DNA from: a virus | Virus record (IMG/VR): IMGVR_UViG_3300021431_000015 | Coordinates: 634 to 64,633 of that record | DNA: 64,000 nucleotides | Direction: 5' to 3' (one strand) | Part shown: one piece after another, positions 380 to 39,242 of the stretch | Numbering within the stretch: the stretch's first letter is position 1 | Layout of the letters: each line of letters opens with the position of its first letter | Notes under the pieces: model-generated | What the model saw: only the letters and a program-made list of their open reading frames with translations | What the model was told of the DNA's origin: nothing | Databases searched by the model: none | Program-made: the position numbers and the translations under genes

Positions 380-2054
380 GCCCGAGTGCGCAGAATACTA
401 CGAGCAGGTGCTCGACAACAAGATTGTCGCATGCAGGCGACTCAAACAGCTCGCGGAAATCATGCTCGAGCGAATTGACCGCACGTACAAGGACTGGCAT
501 TTCGACTACGAGTACGCGAACCGCCCATGCCGCTTCATCGAGCACTTCTGCTACCTCCCCTCCGGGAAGATAGGCCGCCCGTTCGTGCTGGAGCCGTTCC
601 AGAAGGCGGCGATTCAGGTCATGTACGGCTTCGTGGACGACAACGGGTTCAGGCAGTTCCACGAGTCCCTGTGGGAGCTCGGGCGCAAGAACGGCAAGAC
701 CTCGCTCTCGTCCGCCCTCCTGCTCTACTCGCTCATGGCCGACGGCGAGGGTGCGCCGCAATGCTACACGAGCGCGACCTCACGCGCCCAGGCGTCCCTG
801 GCATACGGCGCCGTGCTCAAGATGATGAGGCAGTCCAAGATGCTGTCCAAGCGGCTCAGGAAGGGCACGGTCCCGGAGCGCGGCGAGGACGGCATCATCT
901 TCGATGCCAACATGGGTTACATCACGCCGCTGACCAACCAGACCCGCCACCTCGACGGCCTGGACGTCCACTTCTGCCTGTTCGACGAGCTGGCCGCCTG
1001 CACGAACCGCGACCAGTACGACCTCCTGAAGCAGGGCATGTCCGCACGCGATCAGCCCATGATGCTGTGCATCACCACCAACGGCTTCGAGCGCGGCAAC
1101 ATCTTCGATGACCGTTACGAATACGGGTGCCGCATCCTGGACGGCGAGGTCGACGACGACCGCTTCCTGCCCATCATCTACGAGCTGGACTCCCGCGACG
1201 AGTGGCAGGACGAGACCTGCTGGGTCAAGGCGAACCCAGGGCTGGGCACAATCAAGAAGTGGTCGACGCTGCGCGACTACGTCTCGGAGGCGCAGCAGAA
1301 CCCCGGATTCCTCCCAACCGTCCTCACCAAGGACTTCAACATCCCCGAGAACCGCGCAGCCGCATGGCTCAACTACGAGGAGGCCGTCTGCGACGAGACG
1401 TTCGACATATCGGAGATGGGCTTCCGCTACGGCATCGCAGGCTTCGACGCGTCCGACACGACCGACATCTCGTCGGCCACGATGATGATGATGCGCCCAG
1501 GCGACGACCATATCTACGAGTTGCAGATGAACTGGCTCCCGGAGGCGTCTCTCCGGGACGACGGCCTGCGCTCCGAGCGCGACGACGTGCCCTACCGCCT
1601 GTGGGAGAAGCGCGGGCTCCTGCGCATCGTGGAGGGCAACAAGGTGCCAAAGCAGGTGTTCCTGGATTGGCTTGAGGAAATCAAGGAGCAGTACGACGTG
1701 TGGGCCTACGCCGTGGGCTACGACCCGTGGCACATCATCGGCACCGACGAGACCAACTTGCAGCAGTACGTGGGCAAGGACAGGGCGGACGTGGTTCGCC
1801 AGGGCGTGAAGACGCTCTCCGACCCCATGAAGCAGATCAGGGCCGACTTCGCGGCCAACCGCATCGTCAACAACGGGAACCCCATGACGCAATGGGCGCG
1901 TATGAACGTATCCGTCAAGACCGACGTGAACGCCAACATCCAGCCCGTCAAGCTGGGCGGCAAGGCCAAGAACCGCATCGACCCGTTCATGTCGGAGCTG
2001 TTCGCCTACATCGCCCTGCTCAGGCATTACGACGAGTACCAGAACATCATCTAG
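369..2054 (+). CDS. terL: terminase large subunit
   Basis: 561 aa; 'GRKNGKT' P-loop, ATPase-nuclease arrangement and overall match to phage TerL family. Confidence 0.9.
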   Translation: MTIKPECAEYYEQVLDNKIVACRRLKQLAEIMLERIDRTYKDWHFDYEYANRPCRFIEHFCYLPSGKIGRPFVLEPFQKAAIQVMYGFVDDNGFRQFHESLWELGRKNGKTSLSSALLLYSLMADGEGAPQCYTSATSRAQASLAYGAVLKMMRQSKMLSKRLRKGTVPERGEDGIIFDANMGYITPLTNQTRHLDGLDVHFCLFDELAACTNRDQYDLLKQGMSARDQPMMLCITTNGFERGNIFDDRYEYGCRILDGEVDDDRFLPIIYELDSRDEWQDETCWVKANPGLGTIKKWSTLRDYVSEAQQNPGFLPTVLTKDFNIPENRAAAWLNYEEAVCDETFDISEMGFRYGIAGFDASDTTDISSATMMMMRPGDDHIYELQMNWLPEASLRDDGLRSERDDVPYRLWEKRGLLRIVEGNKVPKQVFLDWLEEIKEQYDVWAYAVGYDPWHIIGTDETNLQQYVGKDRADVVRQGVKTLSDPMKQIRADFAANRIVNNGNPMTQWARMNVSVKTDVNANIQPVKLGGKAKNRIDPFMSELFAYIALLRHYDEYQNII

Positions 2055-2062
2055 GAGGCACG

Positions 2063-2296
2063 ATGGAAAAGGGCATGCGCAAGCGCATGATGCTCACCGA
2101 GGGCGACTGGGAGCGCGAGACGCTCATCGAGATGAGGGAGATGCTCGTCGGCGACAACGCCTGCGAGGCTTGCGCTAACTCATATCTGCGCAAGGCTAAG
2201 AACGGCAGGGTGCGCCGCTACTGCAAAATCCAGCATCGCGGCGTGGATTACGAGTTCGGTCAGGAATGCTTCGAGGCGAGGGAGTTCGAGCTGTGA
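2063..2296 (+). CDS. hypothetical protein (77 aa)
   Basis: AGGAGG 6 nt upstream of ATG; basic, CxxC-containing. Confidence 0.55.
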   Translation: MEKGMRKRMMLTEGDWERETLIEMREMLVGDNACEACANSYLRKAKNGRVRRYCKIQHRGVDYEFGQECFEAREFEL

Positions 2297-2502
2297 TTGA
2301 GTTTTCGGTCGAAGAGGTCATTTGGTCTGACGAAGTCCAACGGGCATTAGCTTCAGACATACCGAAAACGGGCCTCCTGAAGCGTCTCATGGACTCGCCT
2401 GAGCCTGTTTGCGACCAGGGTTCATGCGAGGTGGATGAAGTGTCGGAGGTTCTCGAGGAAGCCGTCAGGAAGGTTCTGTTCGGGAGGGTGCTGAATGGCT
2501 AA
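2293..2502 (+). CDS. hypothetical protein (69 aa)
   Basis: GTG start in GTGA overlap with upstream stop; continuous frame into HNH gene overlap. Confidence 0.45.
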   Translation: MIEFSVEEVIWSDEVQRALASDIPKTGLLKRLMDSPEPVCDQGSCEVDEVSEVLEEAVRKVLFGRVLNG

Positions 2503-2839
2503 GGAATGGGCGAAGCCGTTCTACAAGTCGGCGGCATGGGAGAAGGTCAGGGACGCTGCGCTGTGGAGGTCTCACTCGCTGTGCGTGCGCTGCAAGGAGC
2601 GCGGCAAGCTGACGCCAGCCAGGGTCGTGCATCACATGGTTCCGCTGACGCCGGAGAACATCGACGACCCGGCAATCTCGCTGAACCTGGACTTGCTGAT
2701 GCCGCTGTGCCACGAGTGCCACGGCATCGTCCATGACGAGCTGGGCGTGGGAGCGCCGTTCGTGCGAAGCAAGGCCGACCGCGAGCTGGACGAGCCGAGG
2801 GTCGGGTTCGATGCGATGGGCAACGTCGTGAAGCTGTAG
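2495..2839 (+). CDS. HNH endonuclease
   Basis: CVRCKERGK..VVHHMVPL..N...LMPLCHECHGIVH: canonical HNH C..C/HH/N/H..H motifs; position next to terminase. Confidence 0.85.
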   Translation: MAKEWAKPFYKSAAWEKVRDAALWRSHSLCVRCKERGKLTPARVVHHMVPLTPENIDDPAISLNLDLLMPLCHECHGIVHDELGVGAPFVRSKADRELDEPRVGFDAMGNVVKL

Positions 2840-2919
2840 CTGTACCGTTTATCGGACATGTGGTATGATGCGGCCTGCTCGCGGATGCGAATCTACCTCC
2901 CTTCTCCGTGAGTATCGAG

Positions 2920-2955
2920 CCTGGGACGCTGCAACGTCCTGGGCTTTCTTTTTGG
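2920..2955 (+). terminator. putative rho-independent terminator after terL-HNH
   Basis: imperfect hairpin cctgggacg..cgtcctggg followed by ctttctttttgg. Confidence 0.4.
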
Positions 2956-3388
2956 CTGCATACAGGGTGGCGTGCGGGGAGTTTTCGGGGTATCTGAATC
3001 CTGGGCCGACGCTTTCGGATGGCTGCGGCGGGCTTAGCGCGAAAACCGGCAGGCGAAGGGCTGGATGTTTTGTCGCCTGAGCTGGGCTTCGCGTGCGATA
3101 TTTTGCGCATGCGATATGTATGTATGTGCACGTAATTAAGCGTGCGGATTAAGCGCAGGCATGTATATATTTCGGCAGAGTTGGAAAAATTCCGCGCTCC
3201 TATTGCCGTCTCCCGCGCCGGACCCCTCGCCTGACCTGGTTTTTTATATAATATGGGGGATATGTCTAAATTGTGGTCGATAGCGTCGCCAGTCGGCCGC
3301 TATCGGCGCGTTTGCGCAGGTCAATCGCTGTTTTTCCATCCCATACCCATACTATATCTATACATATAATCATTATTGTATGGTTGTT

Positions 3389-3423
3389 GTCTCCGTCTCC
3401 GCTGTGTCTCCGTCTCCGCTGTG
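3389..3423. repeat. tandem direct repeat (gtctccgtctccgctgtg x2)
   Basis: seen directly in sequence in low-GC intergenic island. Confidence 0.5.
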
Positions 3424-3443
3424 GCTTAAACACTATGCAAAAA

Positions 3444-3494
3444 CGCATACCGCATAGGCTATTTCCCCTATTCAAATAGCCTATTCGGTATGCG
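3444..3494. promoter_or_regulatory. 21-bp imperfect inverted repeat (cgcataccgcataggctattt / aaatagcctattcggtatgcg), possible operator or structured site
   Basis: one mismatch between arms, 9-bp spacer; AT-rich surroundings. Confidence 0.35.
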
Positions 3495-3627
3495 CTTCAA
3501 CATATTCATATATGTAATGGGTCAATCCTTGCGCGTAAACGCACTGCCAAACGGTATCTAATACCAAAAATCCAGCGGCATAGTTAGGCATACCTAACTT
3601 TCGTGTTCGCCTGGTAAACGCTTGTGC

Positions 3628-3864
3628 CTATTCCCCTGCGTCAATCTGTATCGCGGTATCCGGCAACGTCTCGTTGTCCGGTATGGCGTACAAGCCATAA
3701 CCGCAAACCCCTAGCATCCTTGCAGTTGTATCCGTTTTGGGCGTGCTGCCGCGCGTCAATATCTTGTTTACGTAGTTGTCCGCATTGCCCATAGCGCGGC
3801 CTATGTGCGTTAACGGTGTACCGCTTGCGTATGCCGCTTGTTTAACCGCACTCATTGTGTCCAT
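3628..3864 (-). CDS. small HTH-like DNA-binding protein (78 aa)
   Basis: GTPLTHIGRAMGNADNYVNKIL resembles XRE-type helix-turn-helix; lies in lower-GC island. Confidence 0.45.
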   Translation of the reverse strand: MDTMSAVKQAAYASGTPLTHIGRAMGNADNYVNKILTRGSTPKTDTTARMLGVCGYGLYAIPDNETLPDTAIQIDAGE

Positions 3865-4105
3865 TATTCCCCCATTTATCAGGCGCTTTATTGTTTTTTG
3901 TCCATCAATCTTAACTCATTATTCCCCAGATGCCTATTACCCAGTTGTGTAGGGTTTATGTAGAACAACATTACCCACTTGCGTATGCATACCCAGTTGG
4001 GTATGTTTAATGCGCACCTTGAAAACGATAAACGCCTTACCCGCTAGGGTTTGGCGCTTGTCGCGTCAAGCGTGCAGCACCTTGAAAATCGAATATCGCT
4101 AAAGC

Positions 4106-4629
4106 GTTCCTTATGTTGGGTACCCGTTTACAACGGTTACATATCAACATGGAAGGAAACAGATTATGGCTACTATCACTTTCAAGAATGGCGCAACTGC
4201 AACTATCAATATGGACGAACTTAAGACCCTGTTGGGGCTTGAGGGTATCGCCACCGAGAACGTATTCGATACTATCGTTATTAGTAAGCCGCTCGATACG
4301 CGCAAGGTTGACAAGGTTGCAAGCGGCGAAAACCGCGAACCTGTCCCCTACGCTAAGTTTGGCAAGCGTGCCAAGGGTATCGCCGACAATGCACGCAAGC
4401 ACGCCCCTAGCGCGGCGTGTGTCATCCAGTACCCCGCCAAGGGCGACAAGGGCAATGGCTGGATTTGGCTGGACAATAACGGTCAATTTGTTGAGGGCTT
4501 GTCCCCCAACTGGAAGTGGTCTAAGCGTCGCAAGATGCACTATTACGACCTTAACCCCAAACCCGCTAAGAAAAGCGGAAACAAGTAGGTATCATCGGGT
4601 ACCCAACACGGGTACCCAACATAAGGAAC
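4106..4629. repeat. single-gene cassette bounded by perfect 20-bp inverted repeats (gttccttatgttgggtaccc ... gggtacccaacataaggaac)
   Basis: IR arms at 4106-4125 and 4610-4629; 12-bp tandem duplication gggtacccaaca next to right arm; direct repeats caccttgaaaa(c/t)cga at about 4019 and 4081. Confidence 0.6.
4166..4588 (+). CDS. hypothetical protein (140 aa) carried inside IR-flanked cassette
   Basis: GGAAGG RBS 9 nt upstream; lower GC than surrounding phage genes. Confidence 0.6.
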   Translation: MATITFKNGATATINMDELKTLLGLEGIATENVFDTIVISKPLDTRKVDKVASGENREPVPYAKFGKRAKGIADNARKHAPSAACVIQYPAKGDKGNGWIWLDNNGQFVEGLSPNWKWSKRRKMHYYDLNPKPAKKSGNK

Positions 4630-4639
4630 ACTCACAAGC

Positions 4640-5395
4640 GATATTCGAACCCGGCGCGTGTTTCAGGTTGCTAGTACTCAATAGAACAACTTCAAGCGCC
4701 TACACGCCACGTCGCATAGCGGGGATAAGTACCCGTGTAGGGACGTGGTAGCCGGGATGCCTACGGTACCCGTTTGGGCGTGGCGTGGCTTGCTTGTCCA
4801 TCGCCACGCCCTAGGGATAGGGATATTTACCCGTAATCACTGCAAAACATAGGGTAACTGGGTCTGCACCGAAGGGCGGGCGATTCGTCGCCTGAATCCG
4901 GCGCAAGGGATTCATGCCAGATGCAGGTCTGGACCCGGCAACACGCTGTCGATCCAAGGGAGAGGTATATAGCCATGCCCCTCCGGCGGTAGGCGTGACT
5001 CCGAACCGCGCTGCGGCGCGGCTAGGGAACGTGTGCCGTAACCGATGCGTAGCGGTGAAACCGTAGGAATACAAATCCGGGAACCATGCATCCAAGGCGG
5101 AGCCATGCCCACAGCCCGATACCTCCGGAGACGGAGCGGGGAGTAATCCCGCTGGTTATAGGCGGAGCTGTGCACGGCGGATAAGAACCCTGCGATACGT
5201 AGCAGGCCGACGGTGCATGAAACCGGTACGTCCGAGGTGTCAAGGACGTCAACCAGAGCCCCCGCTCAGGGCTCGACTCCGGGGCACAGCCATGCCCCGG
5301 CTATCAGCTGAGCTGATACGGGCGGAGCACTCCGAGGTGAGAAGCGGAGTGCCGAGCCACGTGGCAGCTCGCCACGCAGAGAAACCCTCCCCTGA
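4640..5395. ncRNA. candidate large structured non-coding RNA (GC-rich, ORF-poor, hairpin-dense)
   Basis: about 750 bp of high-GC sequence with no ORF >95 aa in any frame; several perfect local hairpins (ccgggg..ccccgg, gcactccg..cggagtgc, tatcagc..gctgata, agcggg..cccgct); strand undetermined. Confidence 0.3.
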
Positions 5396-5406
5396 AAGGA
5401 GCAACC

Positions 5407-5652
5407 ATGCTGCACGACCACGATTTCACCCCTGAGCAGTTCGAGTCCTTCGAGGAACTCGCGGCCTACGACGGCTGGGACATCCCCGAGCGTCCCCTCG
5501 TCGATGAAATCGACGAGCTCGCCGAGTTCGCCGCCCTCGCCGAGGACGAGTACCGCACGGCCCTCTGGGCCGAGTCCCTGCCCTACGTGGAGCACGTCGA
5601 GCTGGTCGACCGAGACGAGCAGCTCCGAGTCCACGACGGCATCTTCTCGTAA
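5407..5652 (+). CDS. very acidic small protein (81 aa), DNA-mimic-like
   Basis: GAAAGGAG RBS; D/E-rich composition. Confidence 0.6.
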   Translation: MLHDHDFTPEQFESFEELAAYDGWDIPERPLVDEIDELAEFAALAEDEYRTALWAESLPYVEHVELVDRDEQLRVHDGIFS

Positions 5653-5691
5653 GAGCCGAGCCGAGCAACCCCATCCGAGAAAGGAGCCACC

Positions 5692-5889
5692 ATGAAGGCC
5701 ATCAAAATCATGAAGTCCCGTTCCATCGTATCCATCGACGAGTCCCTCGCCGAGCTTATCCGCCTCTCCGAGACGAGCGAGGTCGCAGCCGTCGTCTGCC
5801 TCACGGAGACGACGAGCCGAGGCTACCACACCGCCTTCAGGGATGGCCGAGCCGCCCAGTACTCCCCCGCCGAGGGACGCTTCATCTAG
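5692..5889 (+). CDS. hypothetical acidic protein (65 aa)
   Basis: GAAAGGAG RBS. Confidence 0.55.
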   Translation: MKAIKIMKSRSIVSIDESLAELIRLSETSEVAAVVCLTETTSRGYHTAFRDGRAAQYSPAEGRFI

Positions 5890-5931
5890 GACAACGAGCC
5901 GTGGCCGAGCCACGGAGAAAGGAGCCGAGCA

Positions 5932-6117
5932 ATGCCGAACGCCGTATGGACGAGCCATGACCTCGATGGCATCGCCGAGATGACACTCCGGGAGGTCTAC
6001 GAGTTCTACGAGTCCGAGGTCAACCACGCCGAGTATCCGAGCTTCGCGGGCTGGCTGTGGGACATGGAGAGGTCGGCGGTTCTGTACCGCCACAAGACGA
6101 GCGTCAACGGACGCTAG
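5932..6117 (+). CDS. hypothetical protein (61 aa)
   Basis: GAAAGGAG RBS. Confidence 0.55.
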   Translation: MPNAVWTSHDLDGIAEMTLREVYEFYESEVNHAEYPSFAGWLWDMERSAVLYRHKTSVNGR

Positions 6118-6130
6118 AGAGAGGAGCCGA

Positions 6131-6506
6131 GATGGGCAAGCACTACAAGCAGACGAGCATGGTCGAGGAGCTGCTGCTCGACCCGAAGATGCGCTGCTAC
6201 TGCGGCTACAAGGCCGAGACGATGGCTTTCACGAAGGCCAAGTATCGCCGCCGCGAGAGGGCTGCGCTCAAGCGCAACCTCGCCGCCGAGGTCGAGGTCG
6301 AGTTGGTCGAGATGGCCGAAGCCGAGGCCGAAGCTGCCAAGAAGGCCGCCTACGAAGCCTACAAGACCGAGAGCATCTCGTACTGGCTGGACGAGAGCAT
6401 CGACGCGATGACGGACATCGAGTGCCTCAAGCACGAGCTGGAGAAAGCCGAGGAGCGGCTCTACGAAGCCGAGTTGATGCTGAGCTACTTGGAAGAGGAG
6501 GAGTAA
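6131..6506 (+). CDS. hypothetical coiled-coil/acidic protein (125 aa)
   Basis: GAGAGGAG RBS; C-terminal EAEAEA..LEEEE. Confidence 0.6.
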
Positions 6507-6508
6507 CC

Positions 6509-6865
6509 ATGATTAAAGCCAACCGAGTATCCAACCTAATCGCCCTCGTCCTGAGCGCGAGCCTGCTGTTCCCTACGAGCGCCCTGGCCGTGTCACTCCC
6601 CTACGTCGATGACGTGAACGAGTGGGGCAACGGCAAGAGCATCCTGACGCTCTACGCCTGCGGCAAGGAGAAGACGAAGCAGTTCCGAGTCACCGACACC
6701 AAGAGCCATAAGAGCGTGAAGGTCAAGAACCTGCACCGCTGGGAGAAGACGGGATACGTCGGAACGGTCGTGGTCAAGAACGGCCACGAGTACAAGATAA
6801 GCGTCCGAGCCAAGTCCCGCGGCAAGTGGGGCAAGTGGAAGAGCATCGGATACCGGGTCTACTGA
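6509..6865 (+). CDS. secreted Lys-rich protein with signal peptide (118 aa)
   Basis: N-terminal hydrophobic signal ..LLFPTSALA; RBS GGAGGAG. Confidence 0.65.
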   Translation: MIKANRVSNLIALVLSASLLFPTSALAVSLPYVDDVNEWGNGKSILTLYACGKEKTKQFRVTDTKSHKSVKVKNLHRWEKTGYVGTVVVKNGHEYKISVRAKSRGKWGKWKSIGYRVY

Positions 6866-6876
6866 GAGGAGGAGCC

Positions 6877-6981
6877 ATGTACGACCTGTACACCGAGTTC
6901 GGGCTGTTCTGGGGAACTGTCCGAGGGCTTGAGGAAGCCCTGAAGGCGTGCCGAGCCTATGGATTGAGTATCAAATGGTGA
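6877..6981 (+). CDS. mini-ORF (34 aa)
   Basis: GAGGAGG RBS 5 nt upstream; stop overlaps next start (ATGGTGA). Confidence 0.35.
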   Translation: MYDLYTEFGLFWGTVRGLEEALKACRAYGLSIKW

Positions 6982-7175
6982 CGAAGTTCGTTAAGCGTGG
7001 CGCCATCGCCACCATCGAGGAGCTTCCGGACGGTTGGTTTCTGGTGAGAGTCACGTGGAGCCCACGGCCACGGACTCGCTATGTGTGCAGCACAGCCGCG
7101 AAAACCAAACGGGAAGCGTTTGAGCGTCTCCCTGAAAACGGCTACGGCTGGAAACGAGTATCGAGAAAGGGGTGA
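6975..7175 (+). CDS. hypothetical basic protein (66 aa)
   Basis: ATG overlapping upstream stop. Confidence 0.45.
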   Translation: MVTKFVKRGAIATIEELPDGWFLVRVTWSPRPRTRYVCSTAAKTKREAFERLPENGYGWKRVSRKG

Positions 7176-7249
7176 TGCGAGTGGAGAAGCTGTTCTCCCT
7201 GCTCCTGGCAGCGAGCGTGCTGCTGGGATACATCGGAATGTTGAGCTAA
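7175..7249 (+). CDS. possible 24-aa hydrophobic peptide
   Basis: ATG in TGATG overlap; single TM-like segment. Confidence 0.25.
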   Translation: MRVEKLFSLLLAASVLLGYIGMLS

Positions 7250-7263
7250 CGAGAGGAGCAAGC

Positions 7264-7500
7264 ATGGTAGGCGAGCTGACAATCGAAAACATCACCCTGG
7301 AGGTCTACTGCTTCAGTACCGACGAGACGCTGTACTGCGGGCCTATTCCGTCCGAGCCGTTCGACACGCCCTGGGCGGAATGGATGACCGAACCCGCCGA
7401 CGACCCCTACATCGGCGAGGACGGACGCCTGTACTACGAAGGCGACGGACGATGGACGCTCCGCGTCTACGTCACGAAACCCTACAAACACGAGGAGTAA
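7264..7500 (+). CDS. hypothetical protein (78 aa)
   Basis: GAGAGGAG RBS. Confidence 0.55.
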   Translation: MVGELTIENITLEVYCFSTDETLYCGPIPSEPFDTPWAEWMTEPADDPYIGEDGRLYYEGDGRWTLRVYVTKPYKHEE

Positions 7501-7592
7501 ACGACCCGGTTCTTACGAGCCGGGTCACCTGTAAACCGGGCGGTTCTGAGCCTAGGAAACCTGAGCCGCCCACGAAACGAGAGGAGCGTACC

Positions 7593-9182
7593 ATGAGTAA
7601 CGCCCAACTGCAAGCTGTCCATGCCAACTACGCCCACGGCCTCATCGCCACCTTCGAGTGGCAGCGCCTCGTGGCGGAACTGACCTCCACCGCCGAGGAA
7701 ACCTCCACCGAGCCCGTCTGGCGCTGCGCCATCTGCGAGGAACCGGGCGAATGGCCGGACGGATGCATCGAGGATTCCAAGATCGAGATTGACGGCAAGC
7801 TCTACTGCTCCGAGGACTGCGCCGAGGAAGCTGGGTACCGCCTCTGCGCCTCATGCGATGAATGGCATGACGAACATTACGGGGTCGAGGCCGGTGACGA
7901 GTGGTTCTGCTGCTCTGACTGCGCCATGTTCGCAGGATACCACTGCTGCGAGCGTTGCGGAGATTGGCACGGCGACGAGGACGCGGTCGAGGCCGGCGGC
8001 TATTGGTACTGCTCGACCGATTGCGCCCATGAGGACGGCTTGGAGTGCTGCGCGTATTGCGGCGAGTGGCACTGCGAGGACGATTCAATCGTCGCGGATA
8101 ACGATTCCTGCGGGTGCTACTGCTCCGAGGAGTGCGCCCGGAACGACGGGCTGTTCTACTGCGACCACTGCAACGAGTGGTACAGGGAGACTAGGCAGGT
8201 CGGACAATACGAGGTTCGCCACTATGGCGAGTTTGAAACCTGGTGCGAGTATTGCCACAGAAACGATTCATTCTATTGCGAGGGCTGTGACGAAACCGTA
8301 AGCGCAGCAGATTACGGCCACGACGGGCGCTGCGAGGATTGCTGCGAGGACGACGCCCTCCACGAGTACGGCTGGACTCCGGTCTTGTGCTTCTACGGCG
8401 GCGATTCGTACCAGAGGGACACGCCCTTCCTGGGAATCGAGCTCGAGACGGACTCCGGCTCCGACCGCAGAGGCTACGTCGAAGAGCTTGCCGAGCTCCC
8501 GAATTTCACCCAGCACTTCTGGATGACTAAGGATTCGAGCCTCGACAACGGGGTCGAGATTACCGGCCATCCGACGACGCTCGCCTATCACGAGCGAATC
8601 ATGAAGGTGTACGAGGGAATCAGGGACACGGCGATACGGTTCGGATACGTGAGCCACAACAGCGGCAACTGCGGCCTGCACATCCACGTGAACAGGAACT
8701 TCTTCGGGAGGAACAAGTTCATGCAGGATGCGTGCGGATACAAGATGATGCGGGCTTTGCAGAGGTTCGAGCACCAGTTCACGGTTTTCTCGAGGCGCAC
8801 GGACGGCAACTACTGGTGCCACTACAACTACTGCGGAGATTACTCCATGCCGAAGAAAAACGGCAAGGTTCAATACTCCATGCGCGAGTTCCGCAACAAG
8901 GTATCGGACGCGAACTGCGACCGCAACCACACCCAAGCGCTGAACTTCCAGCACTACGGCACCTTCGAGTTCCGCATCTTCCGAGGGACGCTCAAGCTCG
9001 AGACGCTGTTCGCGAGCATGGGGTTGGTCAACGGCCTATGCCACCTCGCCAAGAAGCGCGGCTCGATGTTCTTCGAGACGTGCGACTGGTACACGCTCAT
9101 CCAGCAGATTGTCGAGAACGTGGACACCGAGTACGCCAAGCAATGCCTGGTCGCCTACCTGGAAGAGCGCGGGCTCAACTAA
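7593..9182 (+). CDS. Amidoligase_2 (GCS2/glutamine-synthetase-like) enzyme with N-terminal array of about 4 C4 zinc-ribbon repeats
   Basis: C-terminal half has FLGIELE..GVEITGHP..CGLHIHVN..FEFRIFRGT motifs typical of Pfam Amidoligase_2; N-terminal 230 aa is C..C(D/G)EWH..VEAG..W(Y/F)C..DCA repeats; RBS GAGAGGAG. Confidence 0.85.
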   Translation: MSNAQLQAVHANYAHGLIATFEWQRLVAELTSTAEETSTEPVWRCAICEEPGEWPDGCIEDSKIEIDGKLYCSEDCAEEAGYRLCASCDEWHDEHYGVEAGDEWFCCSDCAMFAGYHCCERCGDWHGDEDAVEAGGYWYCSTDCAHEDGLECCAYCGEWHCEDDSIVADNDSCGCYCSEECARNDGLFYCDHCNEWYRETRQVGQYEVRHYGEFETWCEYCHRNDSFYCEGCDETVSAADYGHDGRCEDCCEDDALHEYGWTPVLCFYGGDSYQRDTPFLGIELETDSGSDRRGYVEELAELPNFTQHFWMTKDSSLDNGVEITGHPTTLAYHERIMKVYEGIRDTAIRFGYVSHNSGNCGLHIHVNRNFFGRNKFMQDACGYKMMRALQRFEHQFTVFSRRTDGNYWCHYNYCGDYSMPKKNGKVQYSMREFRNKVSDANCDRNHTQALNFQHYGTFEFRIFRGTLKLETLFASMGLVNGLCHLAKKRGSMFFETCDWYTLIQQIVENVDTEYAKQCLVAYLEERGLN

Positions 9183-9246: not shown

Positions 9247-10086
9247 ATGTGCATCATCGTAGCCAAGCCCATGGACGTGGAAATGCCCGACACCGACACC
9301 CTGTTCAGCTGCTTCGAGTCCAACCCGGACGGAGCCGGGTTCATGTGGGCGGACGGCAAGAGCGTCCACATCCGCAAGGGATTCATGACCTGGGAGAATT
9401 TCGAGGAGGCGCTCGATGCCGAGATTCCCGAGCAGAAGCGCAAGGAACTGGCAATCGTCATGCACTTCCGAATCGCGACCCACGGCAAGGTGCAGCCGAT
9501 GTGCTGCCACCCCTTCCCCATCAGCTCGAGCCTCGAGGATTTGCAGAGGACGCGCTGCGAGTCGAGGTTCGGCATCGCCCATAACGGAGTCATCCAGGGG
9601 CGGACGACGAACGACAAGCGGAGCGACACGATGGACTTCGTGATGAAGGTCGTGGCCCCGCTTGCGAAGATGAACGCCAACTTCATGAGGAACTCGCACG
9701 CCCTTGACCTGCTGGAAGGAGCTTGCGGCTCCAAGCTGGCAATCCTGGAGAACTCCGGCGAGCTGGTAACCGTGGGCGACTTCGTGGAGGACGAGGGAAT
9801 CCTCTACTCCAACACGAGCTACCTCACGTGGAGCAAGCGCTATTCGAGCTACGGGAGCCTGTTCTCCGGGACTGGATACACGGAGGCCTACGGCGAGTAC
9901 CTGGACGACTTCATCGACATGCTGCCCTGGATGGCGTGCAAGGACTGTGCGAACGCCGAGTTCTGCGCCATGGATTACCCGGAGTGCGAGAGCGAGAACA
10001 TCGCTCACAAGATGAGCGCCTACATGAACGGCTGGGATGACGAGTGGATTGTCGAGGACGAGGAAACGGCGGTGTTGGTCGGCTAA
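9247..10086 (+). CDS. class-II (Ntn) glutamine amidotransferase-like protein
   Basis: starts MCIIVAKP (Cys2 nucleophile after Met removal), HFRIATHGK and GIAHNGVIQG motifs; RBS AAAGGAG positioned for the second ATG. Confidence 0.85.
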   Translation: MCIIVAKPMDVEMPDTDTLFSCFESNPDGAGFMWADGKSVHIRKGFMTWENFEEALDAEIPEQKRKELAIVMHFRIATHGKVQPMCCHPFPISSSLEDLQRTRCESRFGIAHNGVIQGRTTNDKRSDTMDFVMKVVAPLAKMNANFMRNSHALDLLEGACGSKLAILENSGELVTVGDFVEDEGILYSNTSYLTWSKRYSSYGSLFSGTGYTEAYGEYLDDFIDMLPWMACKDCANAEFCAMDYPECESENIAHKMSAYMNGWDDEWIVEDEETAVLVG

Positions 10087-10397
10087 TGGGCAAGGTCAGG
10101 TACAACCAGGCAGGCTATGTCGGCTGCTCCATGTCGGAGCGAGCCGTCATGGCCTACGAATCGGGCGAGATGCCCAAGTCGAAGTGGACGAAACGAGCCA
10201 TGCTCACGGCAATCGAGGACTACTGCGACGAGTTTTCCATCCCCTACGACGGGCGGCTGTCGTCGCTCAAGAAGGCGGAGATATTCGAGCGGTTCTTCGA
10301 GTGGAAATCATGGCACCACACCGGGAAGTACGCCAACGTGACGGACTTCTACGGGTTGGACGAGGAAGCGGTTTGCGAGTTGGGAGGAATGGAATGA
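10086..10397 (+). CDS. hypothetical protein (103 aa)
   Basis: TAATG overlap with upstream gene. Confidence 0.55.
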   Translation: MGKVRYNQAGYVGCSMSERAVMAYESGEMPKSKWTKRAMLTAIEDYCDEFSIPYDGRLSSLKKAEIFERFFEWKSWHHTGKYANVTDFYGLDEEAVCELGGME

Positions 10398-18663: not shown

Positions 18664-19293
18664 ATGGATTACAGGGTGCATGGATTCAGGCATGGGGATT
18701 ATCTAATCCGCAACGTAGACGAGTACCGGCCTTACTGGTCGGAGGTCAGGGACGTGCTCGATTCCATCACCGAATCGCGGATAATCGCCCATTTCCAGGA
18801 TAACTATGAGGGTAGGAAGAAATCCATCTCGCTGTCCCTCAACGCGCTCCTGAAGGAGGAGTTCGTGGCACGTGGATGGAATGCGGAGTCGCAAATCTTC
18901 TCCGAAGCAGAATACGCCGACAACCAGAGCATTTTCAGGCTCGATTTCGCCAAGGGGATAGTCTCCATCGAAGTCGCGTTCAACCACGGCAACGACGCGC
19001 CCTGGAACCTCCTGAAGCCCACCCTGGCAAGCGAGTTGAACCACGTGGAGAAGGCCATCCAGACGGAAATCGGCATCATCATCACCGCCACCGACGAGAT
19101 GAAGGCCAGCGGCGGTTTCGACGCCGCAGTCGGCTCATACGAGAAGTACATCCGCTTCCTGCGCCCCATGGGCATGCTGTTGACCGCCCCGCTCGTGATA
19201 ATCGGGCTCGAAGCCCCGAAGACGTTCCATGTGGAGCATGAATCCCGGAACGGCAAGAAGCTGGGGCATATCGTCCGCGATTTGAACGTTTGA
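18664..19293 (+). CDS. type II restriction endonuclease, BglII/BamHI-like fold (predicted)
   Basis: GIVSIEVAFNHGNDAPWNLLK and EIGIIITATDE align with BglII ..TLVEVQFSNYPFLLNN.. and ..KVAIIITKG.. catalytic core; directly upstream of a C5-MTase. Confidence 0.65.
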   Translation: MDYRVHGFRHGDYLIRNVDEYRPYWSEVRDVLDSITESRIIAHFQDNYEGRKKSISLSLNALLKEEFVARGWNAESQIFSEAEYADNQSIFRLDFAKGIVSIEVAFNHGNDAPWNLLKPTLASELNHVEKAIQTEIGIIITATDEMKASGGFDAAVGSYEKYIRFLRPMGMLLTAPLVIIGLEAPKTFHVEHESRNGKKLGHIVRDLNV

Positions 19294-19349
19294 TCCGAAG
19301 CGGACTATCTGATACCATCGAAAACCGAATAAGACGAAGGGAGTAACGC

Positions 19350-20642
19350 ATGATTCGCGTCGCTGAGATGTTTGCCGGAGTCGGCGGGTTCCGCCTGGGC
19401 CTGGAGGGCTATGGAAAGCCCGGTGACAAGCTCTACAAGCCGCCTGCTGGCAATTTCAAGACCGTCTGGGCCAACCAGTGGGAACCGCCGGGAACTCCGG
19501 CCCGCCAGTTCGCCTGGAAATGCTACGAAAGCCGCTTCGGCGAGGGTTCCTGCGTCAACGAGGACATCGAGAAGGTCTTGGACGACTATGAGGCCGGGAA
19601 ATGCGAGATTCCCGACTTCGATATGCTCGTAGGCGGGTTCCCGTGCCAGGACTACTCAGTTTCCAAGCCAGCTCGCCTTGCGGAAGGCATAGAGGGCAAG
19701 AAGGGCGTGCTGTGGTGGTCAATCCAGCGAATGCTCAGGCTCAAAAGGCCGAAGTACGTCCTCCTGGAGAACGTGGACAGGCTCCTGAAGTCCCCGACCG
19801 GAAAGAGGGGCCGCGATTTCGCAATCATGCTCTCCTGCCTGGCCCAGTTGGGCTATTCAGCCGAATGGCGCGTCATAAACGCCGCAGACTACGGGATGCC
19901 ACAGCGGAGAAGGCGCGTCTATATCTTCGCAAAGCTCGGAGAGCCAATCTCCAACCCAAAAAGCGCGCACAAAGGAGTTTTCGCAAGGCTCATGGCGCCG
20001 CCCTTCGACCCCGAGAACGTGATTCTGCGCAACGGAATCTTCGCAAGGGCCTTCCCTATCACCGATACCGTCGAAATCAGCAGCTTTCCCATCCCGAAAG
20101 ACCCGTATCAGGCTTCTGAGGACTTCGGCGAGCCGAAGGCGTCGCCTTTCGGCACGGCAGGATGCATGTTCGGCTGCAACGTGTGGACCTGCGCCATCCA
20201 ACCGGCCTACGAAGGCTCGAAAACCGTCCTCGGGGACATCCTCGAACCCGATTCCATCGTACCGGAGGAGTTTTTCATCGCCGATGACGCCCTGGAACGT
20301 TGGAAATACCTCAAAGGGGCGAAGAAGGAACCCAGAACGGCCAGGAACGGCTTCGAGTACATGTACTCGGAGGGTCCAGTGGCCTTCCCCGACCCATTGG
20401 ACAAGCCATCGCGCACGATTTTGACCTCGGAGGGCGGGAAATCGCCGTCCAGGATGAAGACCGTCGTGCGTGGAAGCTCTGGAAGACTCCGTAGGCTCGT
20501 CCCCGACGAATTGGACGCCCTTCAGATGTTCCCGAAGGGCTGGACCGAGGGCATGACGGACGGCCATCGGGCGTTCTGCATGGGAAATGCGCTCGTTGTG
20601 GGTATTCCGCACAGGATTGGGGCTGAAGTCGCTCGACTATAG
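19350..20642 (+). CDS. DNA (cytosine-5)-methyltransferase
   Basis: motif I FAGVGGF, motif IV GFPCQDYS, motif VI ENV(DRLL), motif VIII QRRRRVYIF, motif X GNALVVG. Confidence 0.9.
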   Translation: MIRVAEMFAGVGGFRLGLEGYGKPGDKLYKPPAGNFKTVWANQWEPPGTPARQFAWKCYESRFGEGSCVNEDIEKVLDDYEAGKCEIPDFDMLVGGFPCQDYSVSKPARLAEGIEGKKGVLWWSIQRMLRLKRPKYVLLENVDRLLKSPTGKRGRDFAIMLSCLAQLGYSAEWRVINAADYGMPQRRRRVYIFAKLGEPISNPKSAHKGVFARLMAPPFDPENVILRNGIFARAFPITDTVEISSFPIPKDPYQASEDFGEPKASPFGTAGCMFGCNVWTCAIQPAYEGSKTVLGDILEPDSIVPEEFFIADDALERWKYLKGAKKEPRTARNGFEYMYSEGPVAFPDPLDKPSRTILTSEGGKSPSRMKTVVRGSSGRLRRLVPDELDALQMFPKGWTEGMTDGHRAFCMGNALVVGIPHRIGAEVARL

Positions 20643-20672
20643 TAAAAAAGCCCTCCATCTGGAGGGCTTTTC
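20643..20672. terminator. bidirectional rho-independent terminator at the convergence of the + block and the - early operon
   Basis: aaaaa-agccctcc-atct-ggagggct-ttt: perfect 8-bp GC stem flanked by A-run and T-run. Confidence 0.6.
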
Positions 20673-20675
20673 CTT

Positions 20676-20888
20676 CTATTCGGTCTCTACGTCTATAATC
20701 TCAGGCTCATTCTTCTCGAACGCAGCCTTCATGCCATCGTCAATCATCTGCTTCGCAGCATGGTACACGCTCCTGGTCACATGCATTCGCTCGAGCATGG
20801 TCAGCTCAAGCTCGTCCATGGCCGCGCAGACGGCATGGATGCCAGCTTCGACCCTGGCGTGGCTGAAAACATCCTTTTCCTCGTCCAT
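20676..20888 (-). CDS. small acidic protein (70 aa)
   Basis: AGGAGGGGAC-ATG on - strand; last gene of early operon. Confidence 0.55.
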   Translation of the reverse strand: MDEEKDVFSHARVEAGIHAVCAAMDELELTMLERMHVTRSVYHAAKQMIDDGMKAAFEKNEPEIIDVETE

Positions 20889-24587: not shown

Positions 24588-26960
24588 TTAGAAAGGCGCT
24601 CCGTGGACCTTCATGTGTAATTCGCGGTTCTCGGCCTTGAGGCGTGCGTTCTCAGCCGACAGCATTTCGGCCTCGTCGCGCATCGCCACATAGTCTGCGG
24701 CCTTCGCGTCCGCCAGCAGCTTCTCCATCTTGCGGAACGACTCGCGTTGCACGTCGCACACGTGCTGCTTCTCGTCCAGCTTGTCGCGCAGCTCGTCGCG
24801 CTCGGCTTCGAGGTTGTTGACGTAAGCAACAAGGCTCGGGCAATCGGCGGTTCCGCACTTCGGACCCATGCGGTTGAGGAAGTCGCGAGCCCATCCGTTC
24901 TCCGACTTCTCGAACTCAAGCTCATCCCGCAATTCGTCGCGCTCGGCGATCAGCTCGTCAATCTTCGCAATCACCATGCTGGATACATCAGCAGGAACCG
25001 CGTATTCATTGTGTGGATAGAAGCGCCTGTAAATACTTACAGCCTGGTCAATCCAATGAGCACGACCTTCAAGCAACTCGCCGTTACGCTCTTCAAGCTC
25101 CTTTGTTATGCGCCGCAAGTCGTCGCGCTCGGTAGTCATGTCAATCAGCTTGTTCATCAGCTTGTCGCCAGCATTGTTGGCCTTGTCCAGCTCGGCGGTC
25201 AACTCGGCAATGTCATCCTCGTACCTGTCGCGTGACACATACCATGCCTTGTTCAGCACGCCGCGCTCCGCGTCATTCGCGCGTTTACGCTGGGCTTCGA
25301 CTTCGGCTTTCAAATCGTCCACATGGTTTTGCAGCCGCGCCACCTCGCTCTGGCAGAACTCGCATTCGCCGTCGAACTCGCGCCGCGTTATCGCCGCTTG
25401 GCGGTCAAGTAGGTGCATGATGACTGTCGCTAGCACGTGGCCGTCATAGTTCGTGGTCACGATGTCCTCGCGCACATCCAGTCCACGCTCGTAAAGGTAG
25501 TGTTTCTGGGCATCGTTCCTGTAGAAGTCGTATCCCCAGCATATCTCGCGAACGTCCTCTTCGAGCCGTTCCCGGCTGTCGTGTTTGTCAGCTAACTTAT
25601 GCTTTTCGCCAATTGCTATAACTTGCGGCCTGGAATCGTCGGCCAACTTATAGTTTTCGGCGTTTTTTATAACTTGCGGCTCGTAATTCTCGTCCAGCAC
25701 GTTGACCGCGCTGCAATATGGGCAGCGCGGATATGTGCCGTTGACGTGCTCGCATGTCCTGCCGCACTCGCTGCATTCGAGGACGTGGACAGTGAGCCGC
25801 GTGGCGTATAGCTTCGGTTCAGCCGTGTCGAACCGCCTGCATTCGTAGCTCTCGGTTTCCTCCAGCTCGCATGTCCGTTTCGGTGCATCGTCGGCGCGTG
25901 TGTCGCACATGCCCTCGAAGCGCAGCTTCCATTCGTCGCGCTCGGCGCGTACCCGTTCCAGTTCTTCTTCGAGCGCATCGTGGGAGTAGCACCATTCACT
26001 CGATGTGATTGCTTCTTGGCGGTCGAGCCACGTATGCACCCTCGACCGCAGCACGTCGCGCATCTGCTCTGGCAGGTCAACGGCTGAGAACCCCTCGTAT
26101 ACATCGGCTCTCAACCGTTCCCGGCTGTCCGCATCGAAGTCGCGCATATTCACCTTTGCTGCATCGGTTTCGGCTGTTTCGGCGGTTTCCGGTGCAGCGG
26201 ATTTGCTGATTCGTTCATTCAATGCGTCGTTCTCGAATTGCAGGTTATTGCGTTCCCGCTTCACTTTCTCAGCCAATTCGCCGTTGTAGTCGACTCTACG
26301 CGCCAGTTCTTCCCGCTCACGCGCTGCTTCGTCGAGCAAGTCATGAAGCTCTCCAAGCCGCTGGCGGTGTTCCTCCCGGCATTCATTCTTCGTGATGGCC
26401 TCCTGGCGGTCGAGCCAGCGTCTAATCTCTGGCATCGAACCCGGTTCAACTGAATCTGCGAACACCTCATAAAGCGGATTGCCCTGCAAGTCACGTGTAA
26501 GCCAGTCGCATATGTCCGCTTCGAGCCGCTCCCGGCTGTCCGCTTGCGCGTTATCCACGGGGTGTTCAGGCACATCGTCGGCGCGGGTGTTCCAGGCGGC
26601 TATGGCTGATTCCTTGGTGTAATAAGCACCCATCGTATAGCCGCATTCATAGCACCCGGCGACATAGAAGAAACCGTCGCTGACGATTCTCGGCTCGCCG
26701 CCGTCCTCGCAATAATTGCATGGCTTGAGTCCGGGTGTGTTCGGGTCAGGCTCCAGCCCGTCATGTGCGACCTGCTCCTCGACCATGAGGTTCCATGCAT
26801 CGATGGCGCTGGCTTTCGTGCAGAGGGGCGCGGTTCTCATGTGCCGCTCGCACTCGCTGTCGAAGCATTCGGCGTACCAGGTGCCATCCTTGATTATGTT
26901 CGTCAGCACAGGCGGGTACTTGCAATACGGGCAAGCCTTCACGCTTATCGTTTCGCTCAT
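24588..26960 (-). CDS. Lar-like double zinc-ribbon N-terminus fused to a roughly 700-aa coiled-coil protein (Ea22-like)
   Basis: two tandem ACPYCKY..ECFDSECERH.. / CNYCEDGG..CYECGY Lar-family ribbons (..SAIAAWNTRA) followed by long heptad-rich E/R/L segments; GGGAGG RBS. Confidence 0.75.
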   Translation of the reverse strand: MSETISVKACPYCKYPPVLTNIIKDGTWYAECFDSECERHMRTAPLCTKASAIDAWNLMVEEQVAHDGLEPDPNTPGLKPCNYCEDGGEPRIVSDGFFYVAGCYECGYTMGAYYTKESAIAAWNTRADDVPEHPVDNAQADSRERLEADICDWLTRDLQGNPLYEVFADSVEPGSMPEIRRWLDRQEAITKNECREEHRQRLGELHDLLDEAAREREELARRVDYNGELAEKVKRERNNLQFENDALNERISKSAAPETAETAETDAAKVNMRDFDADSRERLRADVYEGFSAVDLPEQMRDVLRSRVHTWLDRQEAITSSEWCYSHDALEEELERVRAERDEWKLRFEGMCDTRADDAPKRTCELEETESYECRRFDTAEPKLYATRLTVHVLECSECGRTCEHVNGTYPRCPYCSAVNVLDENYEPQVIKNAENYKLADDSRPQVIAIGEKHKLADKHDSRERLEEDVREICWGYDFYRNDAQKHYLYERGLDVREDIVTTNYDGHVLATVIMHLLDRQAAITRREFDGECEFCQSEVARLQNHVDDLKAEVEAQRKRANDAERGVLNKAWYVSRDRYEDDIAELTAELDKANNAGDKLMNKLIDMTTERDDLRRITKELEERNGELLEGRAHWIDQAVSIYRRFYPHNEYAVPADVSSMVIAKIDELIAERDELRDELEFEKSENGWARDFLNRMGPKCGTADCPSLVAYVNNLEAERDELRDKLDEKQHVCDVQRESFRKMEKLLADAKAADYVAMRDEAEMLSAENARLKAENRELHMKVHGAPF

Positions 26961-39239: not shown

Positions 39240-39242
39240 TTG

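Follow-up and report, generated by a model that had tools for sequence, protein, structure and literature searches.

A large structured RNA of a probable new family, encoded behind a small basic protein gene in a narrow clade of temperate tailed phages

Background

To our knowledge, only about a dozen RNA classes from bacteria or phages that exceed 500 nt and have an elaborate, conserved fold have been described, and the large RNA classes have turned out to be ribozymes or ribonucleoprotein machines, or remain puzzles. Here we investigate a candidate for a further class in the genome of a virus, the IMG/VR record IMGVR_UViG_3300021431_000015, of which positions 634 to 64,633 were analysed; this entire stretch of 64,000 nucleotides is hereafter termed the window, and all coordinates refer to it. 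The element of interest occupies a gap of 818 nt without an evident protein-coding gene, immediately downstream of a gene for a small basic protein, which we term gene X. We present evidence that the gap very likely encodes a genuine, conserved structured RNA of approximately 730 nt, and we examine its inheritance together with gene X and with a long inverted repeat that brackets this gene.

Three described RNAs are among the closest points of reference. GOLLD is an RNA of more than 700 nt with an intricate fold, found in phages and prophages, whose 3' region is conserved and whose 5' region varies (PMC12286853). ROOL is an ornate phage and prophage RNA of 500–700 nt without a known protein partner or function, whereas OLE, likewise large and structured, is encoded next to a small partner protein with whose gene its own is linked, and it works as a ribonucleoprotein (PMC12286853). 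All three have recently been shown to form RNA-only cages and dimers (PMC12286853).

The RNA described here is similar to GOLLD and ROOL in its size and its residence in a phage, and it also shows a conserved 3' and a variable 5' region, a resemblance to GOLLD that is not in itself diagnostic. With OLE it shares the linkage of a large RNA gene to the gene of a small protein. There are also differences. Unlike GOLLD, which is often encoded beside tRNA genes, it is not adjacent to such genes, has an intra-operon location behind a small protein gene, is very narrowly distributed and has no visible promoter or terminator of its own. Unlike ROOL, it has no tRNA island nearby, a different predicted architecture and a co-inherited protein gene upstream. 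OLE, in turn, is a chromosomal RNA of extremophilic Firmicutes with a membrane protein as its partner, whereas the present RNA is phage-borne and its neighbour, protein X, is an unrelated basic orphan.

Results and discussion

Homologous copies of an unusually stable, non-coding gap

The gap extends from 4589 to 5406, between the stop codon of the 140-aa gene X (ending at 4588) and the ATG of an 81-aa gene (5407). Its GC content is 0.58–0.64, and the longest open reading frame (ORF) on either strand is 94 aa. The ORF-free, GC-rich segment described in a first-pass annotation of this DNA is thus real and a little wider than was claimed. Its position between a low-GC island and a run of acidic minigenes was also correctly recognised: the preceding block (3150–4600) has a GC content of 0.43–0.54, and among the acidic small genes next to the gap the 81-aa product has an isoelectric point (pI) of 4.05. 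The predicted fold of the whole gap has an energy of -359.7 kcal/mol (z = -6.5, + strand), and a second calibration yielded z-scores of -6.15 on the + strand and -5.94 on the - strand, with an energy 41 kcal/mol below that of the shuffled sequences. For comparison, 64 other 818-nt segment-strands of the genome, subjected to the same shuffling, have a mean z-score of -0.89 (standard deviation 1.33, minimum -3.53). Individual 160-nt pieces of the gap are only moderately stable (z -1.2 to -2.4), which indicates that the excess stability stems from the architecture as a whole.

All other copies of the element were retrieved through the flanking proteins, using the ENA/Logan protein index, and they fall into four lineages. 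Lineage A comprises the window, two identical assemblies, and L003 and L015–L017 (5 differences); lineage B, about 79% identical to A, comprises L014, L024 and L025; lineage C, about 73% identical to both A and B, comprises L021, L019, L020 and L022; and lineage D is represented by L018, in which only the 3' ~450 nt are recognisable (nhmmer E = 4e-28). Across lineages A–C the element is 73–83% identical. Between the window and L014 the identity is 82.7% in the gap, 70.0% in gene X and 56% in the spacer that precedes gene X. In the longer relatives, the element matches the better-conserved genes of the block in its approximate degree of conservation.

These comparisons bear directly on the possibility that the gap is a decayed or recoded protein gene, for instance a frame on the - strand that reads TGA as sense. 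Frame -1 of 4560–5440 indeed contains five stops, all of them TGA, and ORFs of 131–184 aa occur somewhere in the gap of the other lineages. However, substitutions counted by position modulo 3 (47/39/51 against L014, 69/69/69 against L021) display no periodicity in any frame, whereas the differences in gene X between the window and L014 are distributed over the codon positions as 32/26/69. The indels of the gap are either 1–2 nt or 10–32 nt long, the longer ones inserting or deleting entire hairpins, and their lengths (1, 2, 10, 20, 21 and 32 nt) leave no frame intact. No ORF retains its frame, and between L014 and L024 the longest one has a protein identity of only 73% at a nucleotide identity of 95%. 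Moreover, the genes on either side follow the standard code and end in TAG and TAA stops, and the translations of the gap abound in Arg, Pro, Ser and Gly, like those of random GC-rich sequence. Taken together, the absence of periodicity, the frame-breaking indels and the lack of an in-frame ORF rule out a decayed or recoded gene, whose probability we consider negligible; an alternative genetic code and a pseudogene were rejected on the same grounds. The third-position conservation in homologs, which the first-pass annotation had put forward as a means of refuting a structured RNA, is thus absent from the gap, unlike the neighbouring gene.

A consensus fold supported by covariation

A consensus structure computed with RNAalifold from six sequences of lineages A–C contains 212 pairs, with 96.3% of the cells paired and 33 pairs showing compensatory double changes. 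In register-shifted controls 34–38% of the cells are paired and 1–4 pairs are compensated, and none of 500 column shuffles reached the observed values, the compensated-pair counts and the shuffle controls being statistics that are not phylogeny-aware. As the consensus structure comes from the same alignment, the test was redone with the pairs of a minimum free energy (MFE) fold that was computed from the window sequence and no other. Of those pairs in which both partners have changed, 12 are kept and 5 broken in L014, and 25 are kept and 5 broken in L021; the shifted controls give 1–7 kept and 7–12 broken (10–12 broken for L021). Helices of long span (50–300 nt) also covary, and nested, multi-branch, long-range pairing needs a single strand, which favours RNA over a feature of double-stranded DNA.

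Further evidence comes from the most divergent lineage. A covariance model of domain II of the fold (R1, spanning 5080–5225 and built from lineages A–C only) finds positions 2480–2589 of L018 with 21.8 bits (E = 0.0037). There the outer helix of the domain is re-coded, CCGCUCUUC...GGAGAGCGG standing in place of CCAUGCAUC...GGUGCAUG. With L018 included, 11 of the 40 pairs of domain II are compensated, 6 of them in the outer helix, against 0–2 in shifted controls, in an alignment that is fitted to the model.

The conserved element thus delimited extends from about 4650 to 5373, and is a multi-domain structure of ~730 nt with ~200 base pairs in ~30 helices. The large structured non-coding RNA suggested by the first-pass annotation is supported by both the excess of compensated pairs over the controls and the absence of a third-position pattern. 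All four hairpins that it had named are present, at 5279–5300, 5327–5352, 5302–5318 and 5135–5153. Three of them are conserved with compensatory changes, and the fourth, TATCAGC/GCTGATA (5302–5318), is lost in lineage C, the alignment favouring in its stead a longer helix, 5310–5323/5356–5370, with 2 compensated pairs.

Anatomy of the RNA

The domains of the RNA and the neighbouring features are collected in Table 1. The local hairpin that follows the stop codon of gene X contains 2 compensated pairs (GGGTATCC/GGATACCC in L014, GGGCAACC/GGTTGCCC in L021). As the 3' arm of this hairpin shares nucleotides with the right arm of the helix around gene X, the two pairings are mutually exclusive. In the 5' domain, helix 4707–4713/4742–4748 has 4 compensated pairs and helix 4665–4672/4695–4701 has 1; L014 and L024 share a 21-nt insertion in this domain, which itself forms a hairpin.

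Domain I has an inner closing helix (4837–4843/5052–5058) that spans 215 nt and contains 2 compensated pairs. Further compensated pairs of this domain are found in the 4776–4811 hairpin (2), in 4852–4868/4922–4936 (1), in 4942–4947/4992–4997 (2), in 4959–4968/4975–4984 (3) and in 5006–5010/5017–5021 (3). It includes an invariant UUCG-capped hairpin (4878–4893) and a hairpin with a UAGCCA loop (4959–4984), and it can be aligned to L018 from about 4930 onward. In domain II, the hairpin 5190–5205 has an 8-nt loop, GAUACGUA, that is invariant in lineages A–C, and the hairpin is absent from lineage D. We observed that this loop holds the self-complementary hexamer UACGUA (5196–5201); in other RNAs, self-complementary loops of this type mediate kissing-loop dimerisation.

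Downstream of domain II, the hairpin 5256–5274 is missing as a unit from lineages B and D (a 20-nt deletion in L014 and L024) and is replaced in lineage C. The hairpin 5279–5300 has the variants CCAGGGCA/TGCCCTGG in lineage B and CAGGGTA/TACCCTG in L021, and its counterpart in L018 is CCGGAG/CTCCGG with an ACAGCC loop. In the terminal domain, which has 2 + 3 compensated pairs and 100% of its cells paired, the hairpin 5327–5352 (GCACTCCG/CGGAGTGC) carries an invariant GGUGAG loop. L018 and L021 are 97% identical from L018 ~2678 and L021 ~1026 (window ~5308) onward, a shared stretch that includes an identical 65-aa gene, and are strongly diverged upstream of this point. As the identity sets in precisely where the terminal domain begins on its 5' side, the domain recombines along with the downstream genes and behaves as a separable module that moves with them. 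A recombination breakpoint thus lies inside the RNA, and the element itself is mosaic.

Table 1. Features of the element, of its surroundings and of the window
Feature	Position	Strand	Remarks
Large terminase	369–2054
HNH gene	near 2495–2839
78-aa helix-turn-helix (HTH)-like gene	3628–3864	-	divergent from gene X
Bracket left arm CGAATATCGC..GCGTTCCTTATGTTGGGTACCCGT	4090–4129	+	37–76 nt upstream of the gene X start codon
Gene X	4166–4588	+	140-aa basic orphan protein, pI 9.8; always directly upstream of the RNA
Local hairpin GGGTACCC/GGGTACCC	4597–4617	+	directly after the gene X stop; 8 bp, ~-16 kcal/mol
Bracket right arm	4608–4647	+	inverted complement of 4090–4129
5' domain	4653–4748	+	two hairpins (4658–4705, 4707–4748); common to lineages A–C, unrecognisable in D
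Domain I	4760–5067	+	multi-branch, closed by CCTACGG/CCGTAGG (4760–4766/5061–5067); seven internal hairpins
Domain II	5084–5220	+	three-way branched, closed by 13-bp helix 5084–5098/5206–5220; in the core of all four lineages
Helix	5110–5118/5163–5172		4 compensated pairs
Hairpin AGCGGG/CCCGCT	5135–5153
Hairpin	5229–5248	+	loop region GAGGUGUCAAGG invariant in all four lineages
Hairpin GAGCCC/GGGCTC	5256–5274	+	lineage A only; paired in the window MFE fold
Hairpin CCGGGGCA/TGCCCCGG	5279–5300	+	conserved CAGCC loop; 2 compensated pairs
Terminal 3' stem-loop domain	5310–5373	+	13-bp helix 5310–5323/5356–5370 around hairpin 5327–5352
Linker	5374–5406	+	33 nt, unpaired, less conserved; carries the ribosome-binding site AAAGGAG of the next gene
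529-aa protein	7593–9182		many CxxC zinc-ribbon-like repeats in N-terminal half; weak amidoligase-like C-terminal half
BglII-like restriction endonuclease gene, then C5 cytosine methylase gene	18664–20642	+	accessory block
850-aa protein	24588–27140	-	Lar (restriction alleviation) domain, residues 138–187
DnaC-like and replication-initiator genes	33.2–34.6 kb
tRNA pair, Arg(CCU) and Ile(UAU), adjacent	39163–39317	-	ARAGORN; 34 kb from the RNA
Integrase	40475–41593
Endolysin-like gene	42.0–42.8 kb

Gene X and the helix that brackets it

Compared with the window copy, homologs of protein X show identities of 70% in L014, 68% in L024, 48% in L021 (for the C-terminal part) and 29% in L018 (a protein of 152 aa; E = 2e-5). 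Their pI is 9.2–9.8 across the copies, and about 10 in the conserved C-terminal 80 residues. The protein had no match in Pfam, PHROG or PDB, belongs to a single 50%-identity cluster among 1.84 billion representatives, and gave no usable AlphaFold2 model (mean pLDDT 45). Residues 73–112 match the repeat unit of a few giant (~2,000-aa) Big_5 Ig-like proteins, with a best E of 1e-13 that is summed over 7 repeats; we judged this similarity to be weak and uninformative.

The inverted repeat around gene X is predicted to form a long helix. In the window, the duplex of the two arms has an energy of -57.9 kcal/mol, and the MFE fold contains 41 long-range pairs with a mean pair probability of 0.91. When the ~580-nt segment was folded as RNA for four loci of three lineages, the helix had 35–41 bp, -54 to -61 kcal/mol and pair probabilities of 0.88–0.96. 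The arms lie 467–510 nt apart and enclose the whole ORF in the window, L015, L014, L024 and L018. They are identical in L015, carry paired substitutions in L014 and L024, and are wholly different in sequence in L018; at the centre of the helix, for example, TTATG/CATAA of the window corresponds to TCATG/CATGA in L014 and to CCATG/CATGG in L024. Between lineages A and B the region that includes the left arm and reaches the start codon of the downstream gene (4072–5409) is a single homology segment, beyond which the next gene is swapped, and the divergence of gene X follows the same order of lineages (B, C, D) as that of the RNA. One homology block with parallel divergence implies that gene X, the stem and the RNA behave as one module.

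RNase III cuts stems of at least 20 bp around the rRNAs and in the early transcripts of T7 and lambda, and the DicF small RNA is cut out of the dicBF prophage operon. The bracket helix provides near-continuous double-stranded RNA of the length that marks an RNase III stem (~20 bp or more within the same transcript). It is comparable to these precedents in being a long, near-perfect stem that flanks a unit in a polycistronic transcript and in its proposed link to a non-coding RNA that is matured by cleavage instead of having a promoter and terminator to itself. It differs from them in that the predicted stem encloses a protein gene, with the large RNA situated beyond the stem in the 3' direction. 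On the modelled pairing, the right arm (4608–4647) is the probable processing site at which the 5' end of the large RNA would be made.

Is the element a feature of DNA?

A hairpin-rich locus might instead act at the level of DNA, as an origin of replication, a packaging site, a single-stranded DNA promoter of the Frpo/ssi type, or an invertible or mobile gene X cassette. The element is indeed hairpin-rich and non-coding, and it lies downstream of the terminase and HNH genes and ahead of a block with restriction-related genes (in L018, the gene of the anti-restriction protein ArdA), a setting that recalls Frpo. Frpo elements are 50–350 bp long, mimic duplex promoters with -35 and -10 boxes, and precede plasmid anti-defence islands (PMC11541004). 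They are, however, essentially one long hairpin that acts on transferred single-stranded DNA, whereas the present element is ~730 nt long and multi-branched, has no sigma-70-like boxes in 2000–8000, unlike Frpo (PMC11541004), and belongs to a tailed phage that packages double-stranded DNA by means of a terminase. Covarying nested helices of up to 300 nt with multi-branch junctions are impossible in double-stranded DNA.

Short repeated words could be viewed as a further sign of a DNA-level element: AGCCATGCCC(C) occurs three times (4971–4981, 5101–5111 and 5288–5298), as does GGATAAGNACCC. Not all of these words are conserved between the lineages, and within the AGCCATGCCC(C) repeats only the CAGCC/UAGCC loop core is. 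We rejected an interpretation of the repeats as iterons, as only one copy is invariant between lineages and the copies are sited in hairpin loops and arms. Two of the AGCCATGCCC(C) copies form the loop and 3' arm of similar hairpins, a sequence pattern that suggests duplicated modules.

With respect to a cassette, recombining inverted repeats can also keep their arms matched. However, the orientation of gene X is constant in every assembly with both arms (the window, L001/L004, L002/L005, L015, L014, L024 and L018, a small sample), no recombinase adjoins the bracket, the integrase being at 40.5 kb, and the unrelated sequence of the L018 arms is a misfit with a shared protein-recognition site. 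The cos/pac or origin function to which the first-pass annotation had resorted as a fallback found no support either: the single-strand helices covary, the gap contains neither an AT-rich segment nor an iteron array, and the replication genes are far off, at 33–35 kb, some 30 kb away. We therefore consider a DNA-level element to be very improbable.

Relation to known RNA families and distribution

At the gathering threshold, Rfam 15 recognises only two tRNAs at 39.2 kb in the window. A search with all 4227 models at E values up to 10 and with permissive filters, applied to the window region, L014, L021, L019 and L018, recovered nothing relevant, only chance-level matches to snoRNA and miRNA models (E 0.009–6.4), none of which recurs between lineages. 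The Infernal scan of Rfam proposed by the first-pass annotation thus matches no family in any lineage, in keeping with its claim of another ornate phage RNA. Hence, the element cannot be recognised as a GOLLD, ROOL, OLE or HEARO RNA, nor as an intron, RNase P, tmRNA or riboswitch. The covariance models of GOLLD (RF01998) and ROOL (RF03087) specifically had no match in any lineage, and neither did the Rfam 15 models of OLE, HEARO/IscB omega RNA and raiA. A group I or II intron was rejected because no such Rfam model matches and because the flanking genes are separate, complete ORFs, each with a stop and a start codon of its own, the downstream one being swapped between lineages; a tRNA- or tmRNA-like element was rejected because ARAGORN finds just the two tRNAs at 39.2 kb.

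A diverged member of GOLLD or ROOL that has become too remote for the Rfam models would account for the similar size and phage setting, and for the GOLLD-like contrast between the 3' and 5' regions (PMC12286853). Such a relationship seems most unlikely to us, given that four lineages failed to match even at the permissive settings and that the only two tRNA genes of this phage do not adjoin the element but lie 34 kb off.

The element is also narrowly distributed. BLAST searches of GenBank phages with the spacer and with the first 20 kb, and of plasmids with the RNA, detected no copy of it. The same was true of IMG/VR searches with the 140-aa, 81-aa and 529-aa flanking proteins, of IMG/VR exact-block scans with four conserved blocks, of scans of JGI metagenomes for a 20-mer and for a gapped 25-base probe that the four lineages share, and of GTDB genomes examined by a gapped-probe scan and a TerL search for prophage relatives. 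The TerL relatives in IMG/VR (L006–L011) end ~1.2 kb before the element or, in the case of L009, do not have it; with the domain II model, neither L009, L012 and L013 nor the rest of the window yielded a copy; and searches for exact matches to the products of the HTH and 118-aa genes led to the same phage only. With only slightly less confidence than we attach to the RNA itself, we conclude that it represents a new family, not in Rfam 15, that has so far been found only in a small clade of metagenome-assembled temperate tailed phages.

Transcription, proposed maturation and the leader alternative

The + strand is moderately favoured as the strand on which the element is read. The consensus energy is -281.0 kcal/mol on the + strand against -255.9 kcal/mol on the - strand, with covariation terms of 8.8 and 4.7 respectively, and the genes around the gap, from 4166 to ~23.6 kb, are all on the + strand. 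A simple consensus scan detected no sigma-70-like promoter site in 2000–8000, a consensus that may not be that of the host, and a similar scan of the window, L014 and L018 gave no terminator-like site on the + strand, either within the element or directly behind it. At face value, the lack of a promoter and terminator of its own places the RNA in a unit that starts upstream of gene X and continues past 5407.

We propose the following scheme. 1) The RNA would be co-transcribed with gene X from a start upstream of 4090. 2) The stem of 35–41 bp formed by 4090–4129 and 4608–4647 would be the kind of substrate that host RNase III cuts. 3) A cut in this stem would separate the gene X message and set the 5' end of the large RNA. 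4) The 21-bp terminal stem-loop at 5310–5373 may mark the other boundary, where the RNA is possibly trimmed. 5) The freed RNA would persist in folded form and act in trans, like GOLLD, ROOL and OLE, rather than as a gene-specific switch, and it might, as a conjecture, form a particle with protein X. The scheme as a whole, namely a new family of large structured phage RNA that is co-transcribed with gene X, processed and set free as a folded RNA, is the reading that we favour, with moderate confidence. For the processing and free-RNA steps taken by themselves our assessment is more tentative, falling just short of an even chance.

The principal alternative that we considered is a giant cis-acting leader that stays attached to its transcript and controls the + strand operon at ~5.4–23.6 kb, by stabilising the transcript, by processive antitermination, as in the HK022 put and EAR elements, or by controlling ribosome loading. 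Several observations are in line with it: no lineage has a + strand terminator-like site before the next gene, there is no promoter-like site inside the element, the linker and its ribosome-binding site stay with the RNA when the next gene is swapped, and in L018 and L021 the terminal stem-loop moves together with the genes that follow it. In addition, two conserved apical loops contain the Shine-Dalgarno-like GGUG, the word GAGGTG occurring twice against an expectation of 0.27. However, Shine-Dalgarno-like 5-mers as a whole are not enriched (10 against 7.5, P = 0.25), and binding of the ribosome (16S rRNA 3' end) through the GGUG loops accordingly received little support. The first downstream gene varies between lineages (81 aa against 52 aa), so that the element is no gene-specific regulator, no conserved structure sequesters the ribosome-binding site, and the upstream processing stem would be superfluous for a leader. 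We also know of no phage antitermination or leader element that approaches this RNA in size: with its ~730 nt and ~30 helices it is some ten times larger than any of them. On these grounds we regard a leader as rather unlikely.

We also contemplated a more far-reaching version of the favoured scheme, in which the stem, gene X and the ~730-nt RNA constitute a new phage ribonucleoprotein system, the RNA being excised by host RNase III from an early or accessory operon and having a fold and activity unrelated to those of GOLLD, ROOL and OLE. Here the RNA and protein X would form, for example, a self-assembling scaffold or cage, or a decoy directed against the defence or translation machinery of the host. 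This is a speculative possibility that we deem unlikely.

A number of points weigh against the favoured scheme. Expression, strand and the ends of the RNA are all inferred from sequence, and the binding of protein X to the RNA is only a conjecture. The evidence on the strand is only moderate, with 10 G-U against 6 A-C cells in the helices common to the folds of both strands, and the mismatches of the bracket helix are split 3:3 between the strands. The conserved fold reaches the ribosome-binding site of the next gene without a terminator, which fits a cis-acting leader equally well. The 1.7-kb scaffold L003 has no left arm: upstream of window 4137 its sequence is replaced by unrelated AT-rich sequence (L003 1–92), and it may be a recombinant or an assembly chimera. 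Furthermore, the comparison is founded on four lineages only, with about six distinct sequences, all from closely related phages. In the most divergent of these, the L018 gap is 952 nt long, and its 5' ~450 nt cannot be aligned to the other lineages and show no excess stability (z = -0.4), the homologous 3' half itself having a z-score of only -1.9. As the 5' half of L018 is neither alignable nor unusually stable, the conserved core is confined to the 3' ~450 nt, roughly 4930–5373, with the 5' ~300 nt of the element being lineage-variable.

Genomic setting and other structured sites

The window derives from a temperate tailed phage of ~67 kb with its long tail genes on the - strand, whose nearest TerL neighbours in GenBank are Paenibacillus and Clostridioides phages (47–49% identity). 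Past the RNA, the genes of the operon mostly have no family matches, the exceptions being the amidoligase-like protein, the BglII-like endonuclease and the C5 methylase, the latter two constituting an apparent restriction-modification pair. The amidoligase-like domain (PF12224) of the 529-aa protein falls below threshold in the window copy and is on record for its L018 homolog. In L018 the block downstream of the RNA contains ArdA and DUF4313 genes, and the region may be rich in anti-restriction functions. The codons read by the Arg(CCU) and Ile(UAU) tRNAs are rare in many bacteria.

Several other sites in the window are structured. A near-perfect palindrome with 31-nt arms and a 9-nt loop is situated at 3434–3504, at the start of the low-GC block, and the segment around it (3361–3520) has a z-score of about -7 on both strands. 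Three independent IMG/VR contigs, L006, L007 and L011 (94% TerL identity), all end within ~200 nt of the equivalent position. This palindrome could be a bidirectional terminator, a genome end, a hairpin that breaks assemblies or a variable junction. An overlapping palindrome, TACCCACTTGCGTATGCAT/ATGCATACCCAGTTGGGTA (3972–4003), is found in the 300-nt spacer between the divergent HTH-like gene and gene X and is, from its sequence and placement, a candidate operator; the segment 4001–4160 folds with z = -5.6. Other 160-nt segments with z below -5 on at least one strand (10081–10240, 20641–20800, 25601–25760, 39681–39840 and 58721–58880) are probably terminators or regulatory hairpins.

Conclusions

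The locus adds a further example, unrelated to those previously described, to the large RNAs of phages, and one with a defined module in which the RNA is accompanied by a small basic protein that is inherited along with it and by a stem that probably serves in processing. This module offers handles that GOLLD and ROOL lack, in the form of a candidate partner protein and predicted RNA ends. It also indicates that very small phage clades can be the only carriers of RNAs like this one, which can be missed in searches of IMG/VR, GenBank phages and Rfam, and this confinement implies that more RNAs of this kind may hide in bulk metagenome assemblies.

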